Shown here piece by piece: positions 31,456 through 62,722 of a stretch of DNA of 64,000 nt. How positions within the stretch are numbered: the stretch's first letter is position 1; each line of letters opens with the position of its first letter. Under the pieces are notes generated by a model, which saw only the letters and a list, made by a program, of their open reading frames with translations, did not search any database and was not told the origin of the DNA. Both the position numbers and the translations under genes were made by a program. The stretch lies in contig CAWDYC010000011.1 of the NCBI GenBank assembly GCA_963806535.1, positions 32,001 through 96,000 of the forward strand. The letters are read 5' to 3'. This stretch comes from Candidatus Bathyarchaeota archaeon (lineage in GTDB: Archaea > Thermoproteota > Bathyarchaeia > Bathyarchaeales > Bathycorpusculaceae).

Positions 31456-31648
31456 TTAAATTACCTTGCACATAAAGCATAATTGTCCCACTTAAATCTT
31501 TACCCATTACGAGAAATGTTTTGACAGGTTTTTTGAAAGCTTTGATTAGACTGATAAGGTAGATTGTTGACGGTTTTTTTGTGCAAATTTTTTTGTTTGT
31601 GTTTTAGGTTGCTTTTTTGGATTTAGGCTTTGAAGTGTTTGCAGGTTG

Positions 31649-31728
31649 AGTCAAAAAAAGTCAAGAAAAGTTAAAATAAGTCGAGAAAAGTCAAATAAAG
31701 TCAAAATAAGTTAAAAGAAAGTGAAAAA
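31649..31728 (+). repeat. Tandem array of eight ~10-bp units with consensus AGTCAARAWA
   Basis: Units start at 31649, 31659, 31669, 31679, 31689, 31699, 31709 and 31720. Confidence 0.85.
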
Positions 31729-31732
31729 TATT

Positions 31733-33604: not shown

Positions 33605-33842
33605 TGCCAAGCCATCATTGCCATCGATGTCAGATGGACCAAAGAATCCGATGTATGAAATGGCAGGCCGGAAAAAAAATTCAAGCAACTTTACAGCAAC
33701 ATTTAACCAACACCCTACAACTATTTTATTGCCTTGCCAAAATTGAGCACCCATAACGACGGACTCAACAGAGGTACGCAAGAAACACAAAGCTTGCACC
33801 CATGACGAGCGAGTTCTACCCAATTATGGAACAGGTGAGGCG

Positions 33843-33941
33843 CGGGCGAAAAAAGTCCCAAGCCGAGAGAACTTAGCCAAGCAAAAAGCAACGCTCAGCA
33901 ATGAGGTTAAGTGTTAGGTTACTTGGGCGACAAACAGCCCG
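33843..33941 (+). other. Long imperfect hairpin (~100 nt)
   Basis: CGGGC/GCCCG, GTC-CCAAG/CTTGG-GC-GAC, ACTTAGCC/GGTTAAGT, AGC/GCT nested pairs. Confidence 0.45.
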
Positions 33942-33977
33942 TAAAAGTGGCAAACTATTTTTGGCACTTGAGACTTT

Positions 33978-34057
33978 AGTCAACAAACTTTGACTTAATT
34001 TCAGTCAAGAGACCTTTACGAGAAGCCTTATAACAAAAACCAGTCCCAAATGTAATC
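33978..34057 (+). repeat. Module A copy 1: AGTCAA-N6-TTGACT-N7-AGTCAA-N6-TTTACG plus BRE/TATA (AGAAGCCTTATAA) and leader
   Basis: Near-identical to 36725-36804 and to the reverse complement of 59058-59110. Confidence 0.85.
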
Positions 34058-34834
34058 ATGGGAAGTATAGGCAAGAGTTTCGCATTAATTCTAATTCTAA
34101 TCCTAATAATACCTATCTTAAGTCTGAGTCTATCGTTTGTTAAACCGGCGTTTGCCCAGACAGCGGCTACACCGTCTACTCCAGAATTCACCATTAAGCT
34201 AGGTGTTGCTTCCAACGATGTACCTTCCACTTACTCATTAAATTCGAGTTCAGGACAGACAATAGCGCAACCTGGTTACCATGAAGAGTACACCACTATA
34301 GAATTGGTTATCAAGAATCAACCTCTCGTATTCACCAATTATCCGGGTTGGAACGGTGTAGGGTTCTTCTACAACGTTCGCACAACGACCACACCGGATA
34401 CTGGCAGCTGGAATGAACTCTATAATGCTCAGGATGGATATTTAATCCCAGCAAACAGTTCGTACACAACCGTGTCTATTCCTTTCAAAGGTAATGACAT
34501 GATTGATATTCAAGTTGAAGCGATGATAGGACAAATTGTTAAACTACAAGTATCTGACCCTAACACTCCAAGCCACTGGCGTGATGCAGGTACCAGTCTT
34601 TTTGAAGGTCAATTTAGCGGATGGAGCGCTAATCAAACAGCAACCATTAGCGACACAATTACCTACTTAGAATCTTCTCCAACAGCAACCCCAGCTTTAC
34701 CGTCAGCTAATACTGCTACTTCCTCATCGACTCTCTTTTTGATAATCGCCATAACAATCATAGTAATCGCATTCCTGTTAGGCATTATAATTTCATTAGT
34801 TATCTATTTTAGAAAACGAATAGTCACTAAGTGA
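34058..34834 (+). CDS. Exported membrane-anchored hypothetical protein (MGSxGKxFA signal family)
   Basis: Signal peptide, PSxPEFT, FFYNVR, IDIQVEAMIG, SGWS..QT.TI, TM plus RKR. Confidence 0.8.
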   Translation: MGSIGKSFALILILILIIPILSLSLSFVKPAFAQTAATPSTPEFTIKLGVASNDVPSTYSLNSSSGQTIAQPGYHEEYTTIELVIKNQPLVFTNYPGWNGVGFFYNVRTTTTPDTGSWNELYNAQDGYLIPANSSYTTVSIPFKGNDMIDIQVEAMIGQIVKLQVSDPNTPSHWRDAGTSLFEGQFSGWSANQTATISDTITYLESSPTATPALPSANTATSSSTLFLIIAITIIVIAFLLGIIISLVIYFRKRIVTK

Positions 34835-34861
34835 CCTTTTCCCACGGTAGCAACAAACTTA

Positions 34862-34950
34862 ATAAAATTGTGTCACTCAAAAAATAGTCAATAAACTTAC
34901 TAATTTCGGTAAACCGCTTAGTCAAGAAAGCTTGACGAAAACTCTTTTAT
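34862..34950 (+). repeat. Module A copy 2 (degenerate) with upstream TGTCACTCAAAAA segment
   Basis: AATTGTGTCACTCAAAAAATAGTCAATAAAC matches the reverse complement of ~59100-59130; AGTCAA-GAAAGC-TTGACG at 34920-34937 precedes a TATA-like TTTTAT. Confidence 0.75.
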
Positions 34951-34983
34951 CGCTAATTACAAAAAAAGACTATTAGAGTTAGA

Positions 34984-35538
34984 ATGAATAAAAAAATAAT
35001 ATCCGCAGTAGCTTTGGTAACTATTTTGTTTGCAACTGTATTCACTGGCACGTTTGTTTATTATAACTCTCAAATTGCAAATCTAAAAATGAAAATCTCA
35101 AGCCTTCAAGCTCAAATAGCAGAAAAGTCGTCCATAAATCTTGTCACAGCATTAGGGGTAACTGAAATAGCTGCTGAATACGGTCTGGGCGGTATTCCAC
35201 CTTATAATCACCTTTGGATTGATGGCACAGTAACAAATCAGGGAGGAGGATTTGTATATTACACAGGATTGCATGTCCTTGCTTATGCTGCCAATGGAAC
35301 TTTGGAAATAAACATGACTGTCCCCATAAATCCGTTGAATGAGAACTCTCAGACGAACACTGGGTGGTACGGCACTGATGAAAGAATTTACGCTTATCTT
35401 TCGAGCTATGGGGATTATTCTTCGTACCAACGTGGAAATTTACGCAGTGGGGAAACATCGGATGTTAATATCCACATTTTTCATGAAGGCATAGTTTCTA
35501 ATTGGACTATAACGCCAGTTTGGACAAATTCACCGTAG
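34984..35538 (+). CDS. N-terminally anchored exported protein (coiled coil plus FxLYD-like Ig domain)
   Basis: N-terminal TM, LWIDGTVTNQG...GLHV.AY..NG. Confidence 0.7.
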   Translation: MNKKIISAVALVTILFATVFTGTFVYYNSQIANLKMKISSLQAQIAEKSSINLVTALGVTEIAAEYGLGGIPPYNHLWIDGTVTNQGGGFVYYTGLHVLAYAANGTLEINMTVPINPLNENSQTNTGWYGTDERIYAYLSSYGDYSSYQRGNLRSGETSDVNIHIFHEGIVSNWTITPVWTNSP

Positions 35539-35595
35539 TCAAGACCCCAAAACAATTTCGGATTTGGTTCAAGTATCTCAAAAACTTTGGTAAAA

Positions 35596-35714
35596 AGTGT
35601 GCCACTCAAAAAGAATTCTGAGTGGTTTGCGAAAGACCAAGCTTAATTGAAAAAGGAGGTTTAGTAGAAGTTGCGTGTTTCTTTGCGTTTCTCTGCTTCT
35701 TCATAGAAACGCAA
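35596..35714 (+). repeat. Module D copy 1 (hairpin-containing element between exported gene and vapBC)
   Basis: AATTCTGAG(T)GGTTTGCGAAAGACCAAGC...GTAGAAGTT...TCTTTGCGTTTCTCTGCTTCTTCATA matches the reverse complement of 58193-58283. Confidence 0.8.
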
Positions 35715-35900
35715 CCTTAGAATTGGGGGCGGTCCCAAATTGTTTGCTTCACCAAGTTCAGAGAGCGTCATAAATTTCTCATAAATAGCAATCAACAAAT
35801 AAGAAAATAGGGGTAAGCAATAAGTGAAGAAGCCAGCAGTAAAAAATTACTAAGGCTAAAGGCAGATGACATCCAGCACACCAGCGTTCCAAGCATAGGA

Positions 35901-36272
35901 TTAGACGATTTTTATGTTGCTACCAACACTGGCAAGTTTTCGATCCCTTGTTAGCAATACCTCATCGTGCGCCAATGATATGCCGGCAATAAGCAAATCG
36001 TTCTCATTAATCATTCTGCCGGAATCCTTAAGCTCTTTAAAAAGAATCGCGGCTTTTCTTGCAGCGTCACTATCGAATGGATAGATAGTTAATTCCGAGA
36101 GGAAATCTTCTGCCAGCTGTCTCTTCAGCTTTGTCTTATGCTTAAGCAATTCATACTCAGTTATGCTGGTTGTCTTTATTTCTTCCTCGTTGGCGATTTC
36201 TTGTATTAAGGAAACAAGCTTTTCGTCGCCGGCTATGAAATCAATGATAACGCTTGTATCGATTAACATCAT
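35901..36272 (-). CDS. vapC: VapC PIN-domain toxin
   Basis: LIDTSVIID, T.YEL, ND.LIAG...LLTRD. Confidence 0.93.
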   Translation of the reverse strand: MMLIDTSVIIDFIAGDEKLVSLIQEIANEEEIKTTSITEYELLKHKTKLKRQLAEDFLSELTIYPFDSDAARKAAILFKELKDSGRMINENDLLIAGISLAHDEVLLTRDRKLASVGSNIKIV

Positions 36273-36505
36273 TATTCCTCTTCGAATGATCTGCCGTAAT
36301 TTGCTTCCCTTTCAGCAGCAATTTGTATTTTTAGCTGCTCAAGTTTTTCCTTTTCGTTTTTCATAACTCCTGCAAATTTCATTATGTCGGTTTTCTTTTT
36401 TGTTGAGCAGAGGCTTTCTTTTATTACTTCGGAGAAGCTTTTTTTGCCTTTTCGCTTTGATAGAAGTTCGTAGACTTCATTTGAGACTGAAATCTGTCGT
36501 GCCAT
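36272..36505 (-). CDS. vapB: VapB antitoxin
   Basis: MARQISVSNEVYELL...KSFSEVI...FAG; overlaps the vapC start. Confidence 0.88.
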   Translation of the reverse strand: MARQISVSNEVYELLSKRKGKKSFSEVIKESLCSTKKKTDIMKFAGVMKNEKEKLEQLKIQIAAEREANYGRSFEEE

Positions 36506-36712
36506 CTTAGTTCCTTCAATACATAGTGTATACATACTTACTGATAAATCTTCTCAGATGAGGCATCTACCTGAACGATCAGTAGCCCGATTAGCCGAAA
36601 TATGCATTTTAGTACATGTTTAGGTCTGGTATTTTTTACAAGCTATGGAGAAACCGATACTTGGGATAAGAGATCAACAGGGTAACTTCCCAAACTTAGT
36701 TTTAAGGCATCT

Positions 36713-36804
36713 CTCAAAAACAGCAGTCAAAAAACCTTGACTACATTTCAGTCAAAAAACCTTTACGAGAAGCCTTATAACAAAAACCAGTTCCAGATGT
36801 AAAC
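36713..36804 (+). repeat. Module A copy 3 plus promoter and leader
   Basis: CTCAAAAA..AGTCAA-AAAACC-TTGACT-N7-AGTCAA-AAAACC-TTTACG-AGAAGCCTTATAACAAAAACCAGT. Confidence 0.85.
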
Positions 36805-37650
36805 ATGGGTAGCTGCGGCAAAGTTTTCGCAATATTCTTTATTCTAATTATGGTCATCTCAGCTCTAAATCTATTGATGATAAAACCCGCATGTGCGCAG
36901 TCAATACCCACACCCTCTATTCCCCAGTTCACCATTAAGTTCGTAAATGCTTCCTAAGTTTAACTACAACAAATTCTTATACTGGAGTAAATGAAACTCA
37001 GCTAATTATTAATAACTCAATTGAAATTACAATAAATAACCAGTTCTTTGACAATTCAAACAACAAAATATATTACAATATTCGAACTAAACCTCACTTT
37101 TCAGAAAATTGGACTGAAGTTTACCCAATACAAAACAGAACTAGTTCCTACAATGGAGATGGCACTTTCTCTTTTGCATGGTATATTGACGATTCTTCTC
37201 CGAAATCAAATTCAAGTTACACCACTATTGCTTTCCCTGTTGTAGCAACTGAATATTATTCAGAATCAGGCTTTGATATTCAGAGGTACTATTCTGGAGA
37301 TATAAGTCAAGAAGGTAGATACTTTGCGTTTTTACATGGTATTCCAGCCAATGCTCAAATTGATTTCCAAGTAGAGGCATTAGTTGGGCATAATTCTACA
37401 TACTGGTATATTCAACATCCTCTTTACCCTACGATTGGTGGATATTCAGCCCCTGCCATTGCATACGACTTAACAAGTGGTTGGAGTAATGCACAAACAG
37501 TAACTATAAGTTCAACTTCTGGTCACCAACTTCAACTCCTACCGTTCCAGAGTTTCCGCTTGTTAGCAATTTTGCCCTTGTCACTCTTAGTGCTCTTTAT
37601 TGCGTTTAAGCAAAAGCTAAAGAAACCAAATCTCCTAGGTTGGACAATGA
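36805..37650 (+). CDS. Exported protein, paralog of 34058..34834, with VPEF (PEF-CTERM-like) anchor; frameshifted, absent from the ORF track
   Basis: MGSCGKVFAIFF...AQSIPTPSIPQFTIK; restoring one base near 36957 gives YYNIR.KPH...IDFQVEALVG...SGWSN.QTVTI...PTVPEF. Confidence 0.7.
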
Positions 37651-37680
37651 GTGACCAGCGAATAATGGATGTGTTAGCTC

Positions 37681-38450: not shown

Positions 38451-40226
38451 TCAGATTTCTTGTTCTGATAATAATTTAAATTCAAACCTATCGGCATTAA
38501 GGAAGTTTCTCAACCTTGCTTTCTCAATCTCTAAAGTCCACTTTTTAAATTCTCCCTGGGGAATGACGTTTTGGCGTATAGCATTTTGAATATTATCAAT
38601 TAATTGCCTTATATCACCCGTATCGTTCTCAAAAACCTTGTATTCCCATGGGTTTACCCCATTTCTTAAGTTGATAAAATATTGTGATAAGGCTTCAAGT
38701 TTTTTAATGCTTTTAATTATTGGATTCAGCCTATCTTTGAACTTTGGTGTTAACAATTCAAGTTTTCTATTATTTTCATCAAGTAAAGGGTTAATCCATT
38801 CACTAACCACTTTTCTTAGATCGTTTCTTTCATCTGAAAGTCCAAACAAAAAGCAATCCTGATGTGAGTTTGTTATTTTGAGATTATCTACACTTAGAAG
38901 TGTTAACGAGTCATTTACTCGCTGTAACCAAATATCCTCAAATCCATCTTTGGAGATTATAGAATGCAGCAAGCTTCTAAAGCTCATTTGAAGTCTTGTT
39001 TGTGAAGGATTAAACTCAAGCTCGTTCCAGCTTTTTCTTATTTTCTTTTCTAAAATGCTTTGAGCTTTTGCCGTAAACTCTTCTTGTAAACACGTTCTTA
39101 ATAGAGATTGCCAATCAGGTGTATCTCCAGATTTCTCCTGTTCTAAAAACCCCTTTTCAGTTCTAATAATATTTTGAAGAGCTCTTAAGTAATTGTTTTT
39201 CAGCAGATGAATAATAGTTGAAAAAGGATAAGGTAAGCAGAAAACCTTTCCTGATAATCTTGAGAGAGCTTTTGTGTTTTTGTCAACGTATCTAAGTTTT
39301 GTTTCATAAAGTTCTTGAGCGTTAGGGTCAACTATAATCACGTTTAGGTCTTCATTTGCTCTTGCAGCATCCCATAACATATGTATGATATATTCATCTC
39401 TAAACGAGTATCCAACAACTACTAAGAATTTTGCTCTTTGAAAAAGCGTTTTTTTAAACATTAACTGTAAATCTGTTAGTGGTTCAACGTACTCTGATTT
39501 TTGTGCTGGATAAATTAGCAAAGGCTTTACATCTTCGCCATAGATAAGTCTCAAATCTATAGGGTCTTCAAACATTTCCACGAAAGCAGAAACAGGAATT
39601 TTAATACATTCTTTTGTCTTCTCATTTTGATACCATATTACTGAACCATGAAGCTTATAGTGAAAAACATCATAATTTTTGAAGTTATTTTCATTCCAAG
39701 TAATATCAAACCCATCAGTATAGCTACGATGATTTAGATAGCAAGATTGTTCAATACATGTATCATAGTTTGTTGAAAAAATTTCAACAGGTGAATCAAA
39801 GCTAAACAACTCTTGCAAATATTCAAGATTTTTTTGGTTTTCAATCACCACTTTTCTTCTAATAAAATTTTGGAGGAACCTTTCAATGAATAAAAGCTCT
39901 GATTGCTTCAGTTTATATTTTAACTCAAGGTTATTGTAAAAATAAAGAAGCGGTTCTTTATCCCTTCCAATAAGACGGCGAAGCGTGTCTAAGAGTTGTT
40001 CAACATCTACGCTTTTTTTGTCTTCACCCAAGAGCTTAACATTATACTTCTCTCTTATTTTCAAAATTCTAGATAAAAGTTCACCAAATTCAGGACGTTC
40101 ATTATTGACATAACTTTCAAATTCTTTGACAAAACTGTAAGTATCTGGAACGCCAGCATCTACAGATGCTCCAGCACCAAAAAGAAAAACCAGTGCTTCT
40201 CTGCGTTCTTTCTCTGTTGTACTCAA
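38451..40226 (-). CDS. SIR2-family (SIR2_2-like) protein, probable anti-viral NADase effector
   Basis: FLFGAGAS, STNYD, YKLHGS, VVGYSFRD.YI; long uncharacterised helical C-terminus; very AT-rich. Confidence 0.85.
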   Translation of the reverse strand: MSTTEKERREALVFLFGAGASVDAGVPDTYSFVKEFESYVNNERPEFGELLSRILKIREKYNVKLLGEDKKSVDVEQLLDTLRRLIGRDKEPLLYFYNNLELKYKLKQSELLFIERFLQNFIRRKVVIENQKNLEYLQELFSFDSPVEIFSTNYDTCIEQSCYLNHRSYTDGFDITWNENNFKNYDVFHYKLHGSVIWYQNEKTKECIKIPVSAFVEMFEDPIDLRLIYGEDVKPLLIYPAQKSEYVEPLTDLQLMFKKTLFQRAKFLVVVGYSFRDEYIIHMLWDAARANEDLNVIIVDPNAQELYETKLRYVDKNTKALSRLSGKVFCLPYPFSTIIHLLKNNYLRALQNIIRTEKGFLEQEKSGDTPDWQSLLRTCLQEEFTAKAQSILEKKIRKSWNELEFNPSQTRLQMSFRSLLHSIISKDGFEDIWLQRVNDSLTLLSVDNLKITNSHQDCFLFGLSDERNDLRKVVSEWINPLLDENNRKLELLTPKFKDRLNPIIKSIKKLEALSQYFINLRNGVNPWEYKVFENDTGDIRQLIDNIQNAIRQNVIPQGEFKKWTLEIEKARLRNFLNADRFEFKLLSEQEI

Positions 40227-40502: not shown

Positions 40503-40698
40503 GTTCTTAACTCTAAGTTTCCAGAGTACATAAGAACGTAGATCTTAAGCAAGAAAAACTATAAGTTAGGTATCATAGTAAAGAAAGAAGTTAGTTTAAT
40601 GCGAAGGTTGAACTTAAGAAATTTCAATACTAAAAACATTGATACTTTTAAGTTCCACACCCACATTAAATAGGAAACACAAGGAAGATGCGGGCAAT

Positions 40699-57120: not shown

Positions 57121-57547
57121 GAAACTTGTTGATTAAGCCATTAGCTATTAAGAGTTTTGCTTCGGCTTTTTCTACGGATTGTTTGTTTAGAGATTTTTGG
57201 CTTTGTTTGAATTTTTTTGGTTGCAGTTTGGTTTGGTTGTTTTTTTAATCAGAACTTGAAACGGTTGTGCGTTGTGAAGACGCCAAAAGAAATAGAAAAA
57301 TCTTTCAGCGACTACCTATAGGTCAAAATATATACGTTTTGTCAGTACAATTGTATATACAGACGTTATTTAATGATTTTGTCACGATTAAGAACAGCAA
57401 CATTTGCGTTGCCATTTTTGAACAAAGAAATTCAGACTGTTTTTCAAAAGCAGAATCTAAATCCTTTACAGACTGCCTAAACAGAAATCTCAAGACTGTG
57501 TGGCCGCAGTAATGGTTTTAGGATTAAAGCAAAGCGTAAACCAAATA

Positions 57548-57877
57548 TTATTTTTTGAGTCCACCAAGTTTCTTGGTGAGCTCATCAAATATGAGATATT
57601 TCTTTTCTTTGCCTAAATGAAAGACAACTTTAGAAACCATTTCTTCTGAGATGGTAAAGATATAGTTTAATTTTATGACGCTGTCTTTTATTGCGCCTTC
57701 ACTCTTAGTTAGCGGTATTCCTTTCATCTTGAGATTGCTCGTTATGCCGGCTATCACAACGTTTCCTAATTCTTCGAACAGAACTACTGCTGGCCTAGTC
57801 TTCACTTCAGCGGTTTCTGTAAACTGTACACTTGCAACGATAATATCTCCAGGTTTAAGCATCTTTCCAAGCCTCAT
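57548..57877 (-). CDS. PemK/MazF-family endoribonuclease toxin
   Basis: GDII...F......K.RPAVV......ITS. Confidence 0.88.
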   Translation of the reverse strand: MRLGKMLKPGDIIVASVQFTETAEVKTRPAVVLFEELGNVVIAGITSNLKMKGIPLTKSEGAIKDSVIKLNYIFTISEEMVSKVVFHLGKEKKYLIFDELTKKLGGLKK

Positions 57878-58082
57878 CTTCCTCGTTGTCCCATAATTCT
57901 TTCATTTTTGCTTGCTGAATCTTGTGAATAAACTCGTCATATTGGCTTTTTTTCTTGGAATCTTTTGCTATCTTTATTAAATCGGAAATAGTTTCATTGT
58001 ATGTTTCTCTTGGATACTTTCTAATGCTTTTTAGCTCCTTAACGACTGATTTCTTAAGCTGTATTGTAGTGGCTTCTTTCAT
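57855..58082 (-). CDS. Antitoxin partner (RHH-like)
   Basis: TTIQL....KEL...RETY.E.I..L; acidic tail ELWDNEEDEAW; overlaps the toxin. Confidence 0.75.
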   Translation of the reverse strand: MKEATTIQLKKSVVKELKSIRKYPRETYNETISDLIKIAKDSKKKSQYDEFIHKIQQAKMKELWDNEEDEAWKDA

Positions 58083-58192
58083 TATACATCGCCTATAACT
58101 CACTATAACAAATTATATATAACTTTCGCATCATGGCTCAACGCAACTTTCAATAAAGGACTCACCTTAAGCCTATATACAAAGATTAAGTT

Positions 58193-58283
58193 CTACGCTT
58201 TTATGAAGAAGCAGAGAAACGCAAAGAACCACATAACTTCTACTGCGCTTGGTCTTTCGCAAACCCTCAGAATTTTTTTTGAA
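58193..58283 (-). repeat. Module D copy 2 (between exported gene and MazF-type TA pair)
   Basis: Reverse complement matches 35610-35714 minus a ~19-nt insertion. Confidence 0.8.
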
Positions 58284-58295
58284 ATACTGCAAATT

Positions 58296-58964
58296 TTACG
58301 CTACCTTCGTTTTTCGATGCCTTCTATAAAGCAATAGAGATGCAATGACAGCCACTATAACTATTGTAATAACAACTAAAATTGTCGAAGTTGGAAAAGG
58401 TTCTGGTTTAGTTAGTTTTTGTGAGTACATCTCATTCAAGAAGATTAAAGTGGCAAAACTATGGGAACCGTCATGTGTATTAACGTAGACCGTCAATGTA
58501 TGGTTTCCATAAGGAATTTCGCTGAAATTTACAGTTATTGAGGCATTAATTGAGTCTGCACCACCAGTTGGCTGGATGCCGAATATTTGGTGAATACCGT
58601 TAATCCAATCTGCTTGGTAATAAACACTGTTAATTACCCAAAAATACGAAGCTACGTTTACGCTTAATGTAAAGTTGTTCGTTTGCAATACAGTTTGATT
58701 TTGAGGAAATACTATTTCACAGATTGGAGGTATATGTTCAAGTTCATCTGCGGGCGGCTGAATAACAGATGAATTTGTGTGCCAAAGTGTAAAAGAAACA
58801 GTTGGTTCTGGAGGTGTCAAAGTTGCAATAGGTGTAGGTTCAAGAGTAGGTGACAAAGCAGTGGCTGTATAAAGGAGCCCTTTTTGTTGATTAGAAAAGT
58901 TAACTGCGACAAAAGCTAAAGCAATTATTGTGATAAGCGTTAATGCAACTTTTTTTTTCTTCAG
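58296..58964 (-). CDS. Exported Ig-like protein with PEPFPT-TM-RRHRKT anchor
   Basis: ORF 58296..58856 extends upstream in frame through KVALTLITIIALAF (signal); start near 58964 is obscured by an A-run. Confidence 0.7.
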   Translation of the reverse strand: MKKKKVALTLITIIALAFVAVNFSNQQKGLLYTATALSPTLEPTPIATLTPPEPTVSFTLWHTNSSVIQPPADELEHIPPICEIVFPQNQTVLQTNNFTLSVNVASYFWVINSVYYQADWINGIHQIFGIQPTGGADSINASITVNFSEIPYGNHTLTVYVNTHDGSHSFATLIFLNEMYSQKLTKPEPFPTSTILVVITIVIVAVIASLLLYRRHRKTKVA

Positions 58965-59046: not shown

Positions 59047-59057
59047 TGGTTTGAATT

Positions 59058-59133
59058 AAAAGGCTTCTCGTAAAGGTCTCTTGACTAAAATCAGTCAAGG
59101 TTTATTGACTATTTTTTGAGTGACGCAATTTAA
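59058..59133 (-). repeat. Module A copy 4
   Basis: Reverse complement: AATTGCGTCACTCAAAAAATAGTCAA-TAAACC-TTGACT-N6-AGTCAA-GAGACC-TTTACG-AGAAGCCTTTT. Confidence 0.85.
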
Positions 59134-59259
59134 TATGACAAATCAGATGATTCTATATGAGTCTCTAAATTTTAGAGCCAATACACAACATGTAAGAAGG
59201 TCCAAGCCAAAAAAGTCTTATATGTACTTGATTTTAACATACAGAAGAGCGCGATCAAT

Positions 59260-62676: not shown

Positions 62677-62722
62677 TTCTCGCAAAAATCTTTTGACCGC
62701 GATAAGTTAAAGTTTGTTTACA
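62677..62722 (-). repeat. Module A copy 5 (degenerate), overlapping the stop of the upstream gene
   Basis: Reverse complement: GTAAA-CAAACT-TTAACT-N6-GGTCAA-AAGATT-TTTGCG-AGAA. Confidence 0.6.

Follow-up and report, generated by a model that had tools for sequence, protein, structure and literature searches.

A paired palindrome before fast-turnover exported-protein genes of a Bathyarchaeota genome is probably an operator rather than a recombination site

In a stretch of 64,000 nucleotides from Candidatus Bathyarchaeota archaeon (contig CAWDYC010000011.1, positions 32,001 to 96,000; G000:C11:32001-96000 in our numbering; hereafter the window) a paired palindrome, module A, recurs in front of genes for exported proteins, and the question is what purpose it serves. 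The initial annotation of this DNA left two possibilities, either a site at which gene cassettes are recombined or the operator of a large regulon. Bathyarchaeia are abundant in sediments and peat, and to our knowledge almost nothing is known about how they control their genes. We favor, with a probability of about 0.8, the reading of module A as a transcription-factor operator for exported-protein genes that turn over fast, apparently not by cutting at the palindrome. This reading rests on the fixed spacing between module and TATA box, on solitary sites, on varied spacers, on empty alleles without boxes, and on searches that found neither an integron integrase nor an attC site; conservation of the module before regulator genes and a co-distributed membrane regulator also speak for the regulon. 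We document the geometry of the module, its target class, its distribution, the turnover of its genes and the origin of a second repeat, module D. What emerges is a site, its targets, which number tens of exported proteins per genome, and a named sensor-regulator as candidate reader; the protein that would dock on module A probably spans the cell membrane.

The genome that contains the window (G000) comprises 2.95 Mb and is 92% complete. It was compared with 120 genomes of the same genus and with a class-wide draw of 201 genomes; the closest relative, G013, has a LeuRS that is 91% identical. The five copies of module A first proposed for the window are the following.

33978..34034, plus strand: copy 1, with distal box 33978-33995, proximal box 34003-34020, and B recognition element (BRE)/TATA.
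34886..34950, plus strand: copy 2, with a degenerate distal box at 34886, proximal box 34920-34937, and BRE/TATA.
36725..36781, plus strand: copy 3, with distal box 36725-36742, proximal box 36750-36767, and BRE/TATA; a chimeric junction.
59057..59134, minus strand: copy 4, including a preceding "core" sequence, with boxes 59093-59110 and 59069-59086.
62677..62722, minus strand: fifth copy, a decayed module A with no TATA.

Four of them stand as good copies, while the fifth is a decayed remnant. In copy 2 the degenerate distal box lies 34 nt from the proximal box at 34920. In the window alone the single-box count is borderline, with 10 matches against a mean of 4.75 and with 3 of 100 shuffles reaching 10, and it was set aside as evidence. 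A genome-wide scan with a position weight matrix, as the initial annotation had proposed, finds 61 strong boxes (at least 18 bits) against 2 and 2 in two block shuffles, which is far above background, and the exact sequence GTCAA-N6-TTGAC occurs 28 times in the genome, while other spacings from 2 to 15 occur 3-13 times each. The repeated paired palindrome is real, and it is genome-wide.

The boxes are AGTCAAG-N4-YTTGACT dyads, one or two per module, and the proximal box ends on the BRE. A TATA-like sequence follows 38 of the 61 strong boxes in G000; the distance from box to TATA is 7 nt in 32 of these 38, and a start codon is found at +54-57 or +64-70 in 24 of them. When the sites of G000 and of the fetched loci are pooled (89 sites, one of them counted twice), the distal box stands at a distance of 24/25 nt in 55 and of 32-36 nt, about one helical turn further, in 16, and another 16 have none. 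The 89 proximal boxes have 39 types of spacer, and the distal box does retain an AAA center. Module A folds no better than shuffled sequence (z of -0.7 and -0.5). Of the 34 sites in G000, 20 are solitary, in the sense that no other site occurs within 4 kb, and solitary sites are also found between housekeeping genes in other genera. The proposal that the module often follows the stop codon of the previous gene is correct inside the arrays but not elsewhere. Nor is it a general rule that TGYCACTCAAAAA precedes the module, since of 29 genome matches with at most one mismatch only the two window copies reach a box directly.

The genes that follow the module have much in common. A hydrophobic N-terminus is encoded by the gene after 81 of the 89 sites, compared with 548 of 2083 control open reading frames (ORFs; 26%), and, as first noted, module A faces in the same direction as these exported-protein genes, stands 5' of them and abuts their BRE/TATA. 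The targets are functionally coherent, and the regulon consists, as judged from the predicted proteins, of exported and membrane-anchored proteins. In the window its members are these.

34058..34834, plus strand: exported protein of 258 aa, with a signal peptide and, at the C-terminus, a membrane anchor; no Pfam family matches significantly.
34984..35538, plus strand: exported or membrane-anchored protein of 184 aa.
36805..37660, plus strand: exported-protein gene, paralog of 34058-34834; a frameshift near 36955 may be an assembly error.
58296..58960, minus strand: exported protein with C-terminal anchor; the position of the start codon is ambiguous.

Three housekeeping genes, those for ELP3, phosphoglycerate mutase and an M16 peptidase, are also split in the window, and the ELP3 frame is intact in 10 of 10 relatives, so that frameshifts in the cassette genes of the window may be assembly errors.

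Box and TATA together occur with the same geometry in 100 of the 120 genus genomes, while a reversed control pattern occurs once. In the class-wide draw, 17 of 201 genomes are motif-rich, i.e., have at least five box+TATA matches, and they are spread over two families. One distant clade seemed motif-free under strict patterns, and variant boxes were afterwards seen there. In G096 (L089-L095) there is a lineage-specific variant box with TTGTCG as its right arm, and this variant recurs, together with a common promoter and leader, before unrelated exported genes, which suggests recent promoter duplication.

What protein, then, might read the module? A little better than even, in our judgment, is the candidacy of a one-component membrane regulator of about 430 aa, with a predicted layout of N-terminal ArsR-like winged helix (DUF7347/HTH_5/HTH_20), one membrane helix and outer PepSY-like sensor domain.

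G000 C3:335394-336671, and C4:307874 onward: candidate membrane regulator genes.

A single hydrophobic helix is predicted in 20 of 20 fetched regulator loci. The structural model has a predicted local distance difference test score (pLDDT) of 83.6, and its outer domain resembles the C-terminal fold of YpeB (E 3e-7) and the fold of the vibriolysin propeptide (E 1e-4), structures that contain PepSY domains. When presence is called at E<=1e-29, the regulator is found in 27 of the 201 class genomes, among them all 17 motif-rich ones, and the 174 genomes without it have at most 3 box+TATA matches each, none being motif-rich. A prediction set beforehand was borne out, with 22, 22, 12, 8 and 3 matches in five carriers that lack the strict paired pattern, and 0, 0, 1, 0 and 0 in five non-carriers. 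Of the 20 fetched regulator loci, 5 contain a box and a sixth has one just beyond its edge, and in G219, G040 and G294 boxes lie less than 150 nt from regulator paralogs. Three small membrane-tethered DUF7347 genes (G000 C4:373443-381574) have TTGAC-N10/11-GTCAA, the half-site of module A rearranged, about 60 nt upstream. TTGAC half-sites precede 3 of 10 DUF7347 genes, where the loose pattern has 487 matches in the genome, and this is a weak hint that the family reads TTGAC.

The genes behind the module do behave like cassettes, as had been proposed, in that they are gained, lost and relocated fast. Consider the array at the first three copies, and the element beside it.

33691..33945, listed on the plus strand, strand not determined: conserved non-coding element, whose end is the insertion hotspot that took in the array.
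33946..37660, plus strand: the whole array, a 3.7 kb insertion in comparison with close relatives.

The element (about 255 nt) is about 80-96% identical in 23 relatives, with indels of 1-2 nt; its predicted fold has 54 pairs, 7 of them with two-sided changes, and no Rfam family matches it. It is probably a structured RNA, and a candidate for an undescribed one. The array itself is missing in 10 of the 23 fetched orthologous loci, where the flanks are joined directly (gap 5-16 nt), while of the other 13 loci 4 have different inserts and 9 have different neighbors. One contig of a peat metagenome carries the block of module D, VapBC and module A, and two contigs bridge the empty allele. Gene plus flanks have been kept in G000 for only 1 of the 14 module A sites of G013. 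The block 35830-36779, which contains VapBC and module A, has a 95% identical counterpart in G013, upstream of leuS, where it stands before a different gene. Copy 3 is a chimera, the left side of which corresponds to G013 L007 (95%) and the right side to G000 C6:103953 (81%), with the joint somewhere within the module of about 55 nt.

Part of the mobile sequence has a recognizable origin. Module D and the core, with the toxin-antitoxin pairs that accompany them in the window, are as follows.

34862..34884, plus strand: the core, CACTCAAAAA, a piece of the region downstream of rpoN.
35590..35713, plus strand: module D, the last ~16 rpoN codons (on the minus strand) plus ~80 nt of the rpoN downstream region.
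58182..58300, minus strand: a copy of module D.
35901..36535, minus strand: VapBC toxin-antitoxin pair (Pfam PIN and VAPB_antitox).
57548..58103, minus strand: MazF/PemK-type toxin-antitoxin pair, directly after module D (Pfam PemK_toxin and DUF7557).

Module D, as first described, is a real repeat with 9 copies in G000. Its core, however, is the end of rpoN in reverse complement: translated from the opposite strand it gives the C-terminus of RpoN. The core is present in 54 of the 120 genus genomes, in most of them as a single copy with third-position changes, and the native locus adjoins the gene for ribosomal protein S9 (20 native loci). Its sequence marks module D as a copy of the rpoN 3' end. 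Just downstream of rpoN, both G049 and G013 have an inserted module A gene unit, and in G049, compared with G112, the insertion is accompanied by a duplication of 27 nt containing the CTCA core. Such insertion and duplication account for both continuations, from the core into module A and from the core into module D, and what had looked like a crossover junction at CTCAAAAA is better explained as the duplicated 27-nt target downstream of rpoN. Folding z-scores of module D were inconsistent (0.05 to -2.6), and its reading as a structured RNA or as an attC was dropped.

How such a system could work can now be outlined. A dimeric winged-helix protein would bind the boxes of module A and would most likely activate transcription by helping transcription factor B (TFB) and the TATA-binding protein (TBP) to load, in the manner of archaeal activators whose sites lie just upstream of the BRE (PMC5937170). 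The regulated genes move as units of operator, promoter, gene and tail. These units enter intergenic hotspots, where their ends are imprecise and short stretches are duplicated; they take with them pieces of former neighbors, such as the rpoN end in module D and the region after aspS, and swap parts through common promoter and tail sequences. Selection would keep the promoter intact while short-homology recombination moves the units. That short-homology or illegitimate recombination, and not a site-specific recombinase acting on module A, is what moves them appears likely. Since each gene brings its own operator, the members of the regulon turn over almost completely between close relatives.

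The main alternative is that module A is itself a tyrosine-recombinase site, similar to dif, attI or attC, by which exported-protein cassettes are excised and reordered. Inverted arms around a short spacer, arrays in one direction with toxin-antitoxin pairs, fast gene turnover and integrase-like genes in the genome would all suit such a site. A site that is cut should, however, leave a hybrid behind, and no single one remains: there is no box at the joint in 10 of 10 empty alleles of the window array, and none was found at the empty alleles of the nusA-regulator and rpoN loci. Gain and loss breakpoints lie mostly outside the module: at four junctions the left ends precede the distal box by 32, 26, about 14 and about 36 nt, with the upstream blocks common to sites ending 38-285 nt before the proximal box. 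The 39 spacers have no overlap sequence in common. The best hit to the integron integrase profile TIGR02249 in this 92%-complete genome scored 24 bits against a cut-off of 265, although clusters of attC sites lacking integron integrases (CALINs) can do without IntI, and a pattern search, as distinct from a covariance model, found no RYYYAAC...GTTRRRY pair on either strand of 6 intergenic stretches. A co-distributed integrase was not seen either: the one family profiled, that of the gene at C6:86932, which was rejected as a partner, is present in 90 of the 120 genus genomes, some of them motif-poor, and did not turn up in the motif-rich G071, G088 and G104 (9-12 matches). Integrase-like genes lie within 20 kb of 4 of the 34 G000 sites. 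A terminase-like gene, identified as such from its sequence, stands directly 5' of a module A array at G000 C3:304390-306409, possibly a provirus remnant. The recombinase reading of the initial annotation is thus mostly unsupported, and we regard it as very improbable. Unlikely, but less so, is a division of labor in which module A is an operator and module D an att-like site, where an integrase acting in trans puts a toxin-antitoxin pair and an exported gene at the rpoN 3' end or its copies and so builds arrays. The usual scar of integration is a second copy of the 3' end of an essential gene. Most ectopic copies of module D break off at one and the same rpoN codon, give or take a few bases. 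Of the 8 ectopic copies in G000, 4 have a toxin-antitoxin pair directly behind them, and of the 8 in G013, 5 do; the pairs are of several types (families by Pfam for the window pairs and two others, the remainder by eye), while only 2-3 of 22 PIN matches are located in arrays. A tRNA fragment and an integrase gene adjoin the end of one G013 array. On the other side, G000-derived queries detected no integrase-like ORF in the 6.5 kb downstream of rpoN at 20 native loci, some copies reach another 15-45 nt into rpoN, and module D is missing from most module A genes. The region after aspS similarly hitch-hikes upstream of some module A copies, which favors generic capture of flanks. An integrase-like gene of G013 (C3; L032 5440-6430) starts in a tRNA-like fragment, and next to it are a module A gene and a decayed module D. 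It is rather doubtful that the two ideas combine, i.e., that exported genes travel with their operator, join a PepSY-sensor regulon on arrival, and are built into arrays by a trans-acting integrase which uses copies of the rpoN 3' end as portable att sites and toxin-antitoxin pairs as stabilizers.

Another possible binder is a soluble protein with four invariant cysteines and three winged-helix domains (Cys4), which would bind module A as an autoregulated operator (G000 C5:43368-44348, L109; another gene at C3:295955, L138). Its family, in Bathyarchaeia, has two paralogs, one conserved and the other fast-evolving, relocated and placed under module A; its winged helices are ArsR/PadR-like, and Foldseek gave no match at E<=0.001. 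No copy of the protein was found in six motif-rich genomes from a different genus, nor in G005 with its 12 matches, and it is present in 29 genomes that are not motif-rich. On this distribution it was demoted from first choice; as the binder it seems quite unlikely, and it fits better as a regulon member of the second tier. Several observations weigh against the favored explanation. Among 50 selected Cys4 loci, scoring places module A upstream of 15 of the 20 non-core copies, and inspection by eye upstream of all 20, compared with 0 of 30 core copies, and in G006, G042 and G017 the only paired site found is upstream of the Cys4 gene. Of the 27 genomes with the membrane regulator, 10 have only 0-3 matches, and the genomes fall in about two lineages, so that phyletic counts are not independent. 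The window-array joint has a degenerate overlap of 8 nt against G013 but of only -5 to 3 nt against five other genomes, and two other joints have overlaps of 11 nt and of 27 nt, the latter dropping to -14 when a second genome is compared. In simulations 5.3% of joints reach 8 nt, 3.0% reach 11 nt and 0.3% reach 27 nt, such that the two shorter duplications also arise by chance. One junction, that of the copy 3 chimera, does lie inside module A. Conservation falls to background level just 5' of the distal box, and a left half-box, in array positions, occurs near the stop codon of 4 of 10 anchor-tail genes compared with 71 of 2083 ORFs; these two features are, however, also expected from operator selection and tandem order. 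Finally, the operator reading leaves the toxin-antitoxin pairs directly after module D unexplained, and this is what keeps an att-like role for module D among the possibilities.

Some neighboring features were also recorded. A dispersed repeat with about 94 genome matches has a member at 31564-31730 of the window; it is not enriched near module A (6 of 34 sites within 3 kb against a random mean of 4.5), and a link was rejected. A 52-nt repeat at 57312-57363, upstream of leuS, has at least 5 other copies in the genome. A gene with a SIR2 domain (38451-40226), possibly a defense gene, is inserted before the tRNA synthetase gene at 40639 and is absent there in G003.

To place the operator reading among known systems, a literature search was made, which found no paper on the motif or the regulon in a collection with few subscription journals. 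Archaeal integrons and CALINs consist of tandem short genes in the same direction with a repeat between them and toxin-antitoxin genes among them (PMC9668308). The present arrays are likewise tandem, with one direction, a repeat and toxin-antitoxin genes, but they show no attC pattern and no IntI was found, every gene comes with a promoter of its own, sites are mostly solitary, and empty alleles lack the repeat. TFB-RF1 of Pyrococcus furiosus binds a palindromic site just upstream of BRE/TATA and activates by recruiting TFB (PMC5937170). Module A, too, is palindromic and directly 5' of BRE/TATA, whereas TFB-RF1 is soluble, has two known targets and reads TCTG-N5-CAGA (PMC5937170). Transmembrane transcription regulators of the ToxR/CadC type, single-pass DNA-binding proteins with an outer domain, are common in Thermoproteota (PMC10269533), and the candidate has the same predicted parts, i.e., a DNA-binding domain, one membrane helix and an outer domain; the main text of that paper contains no occurrence of "Bathyarchae" and gives no site or regulon for the candidate's family. 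ArnR and ArnR1 of Sulfolobus acidocaldarius are membrane-bound one-component activators whose helix-turn-helix (HTH) lies at the N-terminus, and the promoter has two inverted-repeat boxes, TCGAC-N5-GTCGA, both needed for binding, with surface structures as targets (PMC6396743). The candidate is likened to ArnR by topology, not by homology: it is also a membrane one-component protein with an N-terminal HTH, and its putative sites are paired boxes before genes for surface proteins. The box here is, in contrast, GTCAA-N6-TTGAC and single in 16 of 89 sites. The candidate also differs in its single membrane helix and large outer domain, and in place of type IV pilus operons its putative targets are exported proteins, tens of them, with fast turnover. 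By analogy, the system would work not as an integron, the tests for which it fails, but in the manner of an ArnR- or ToxR-type regulon.

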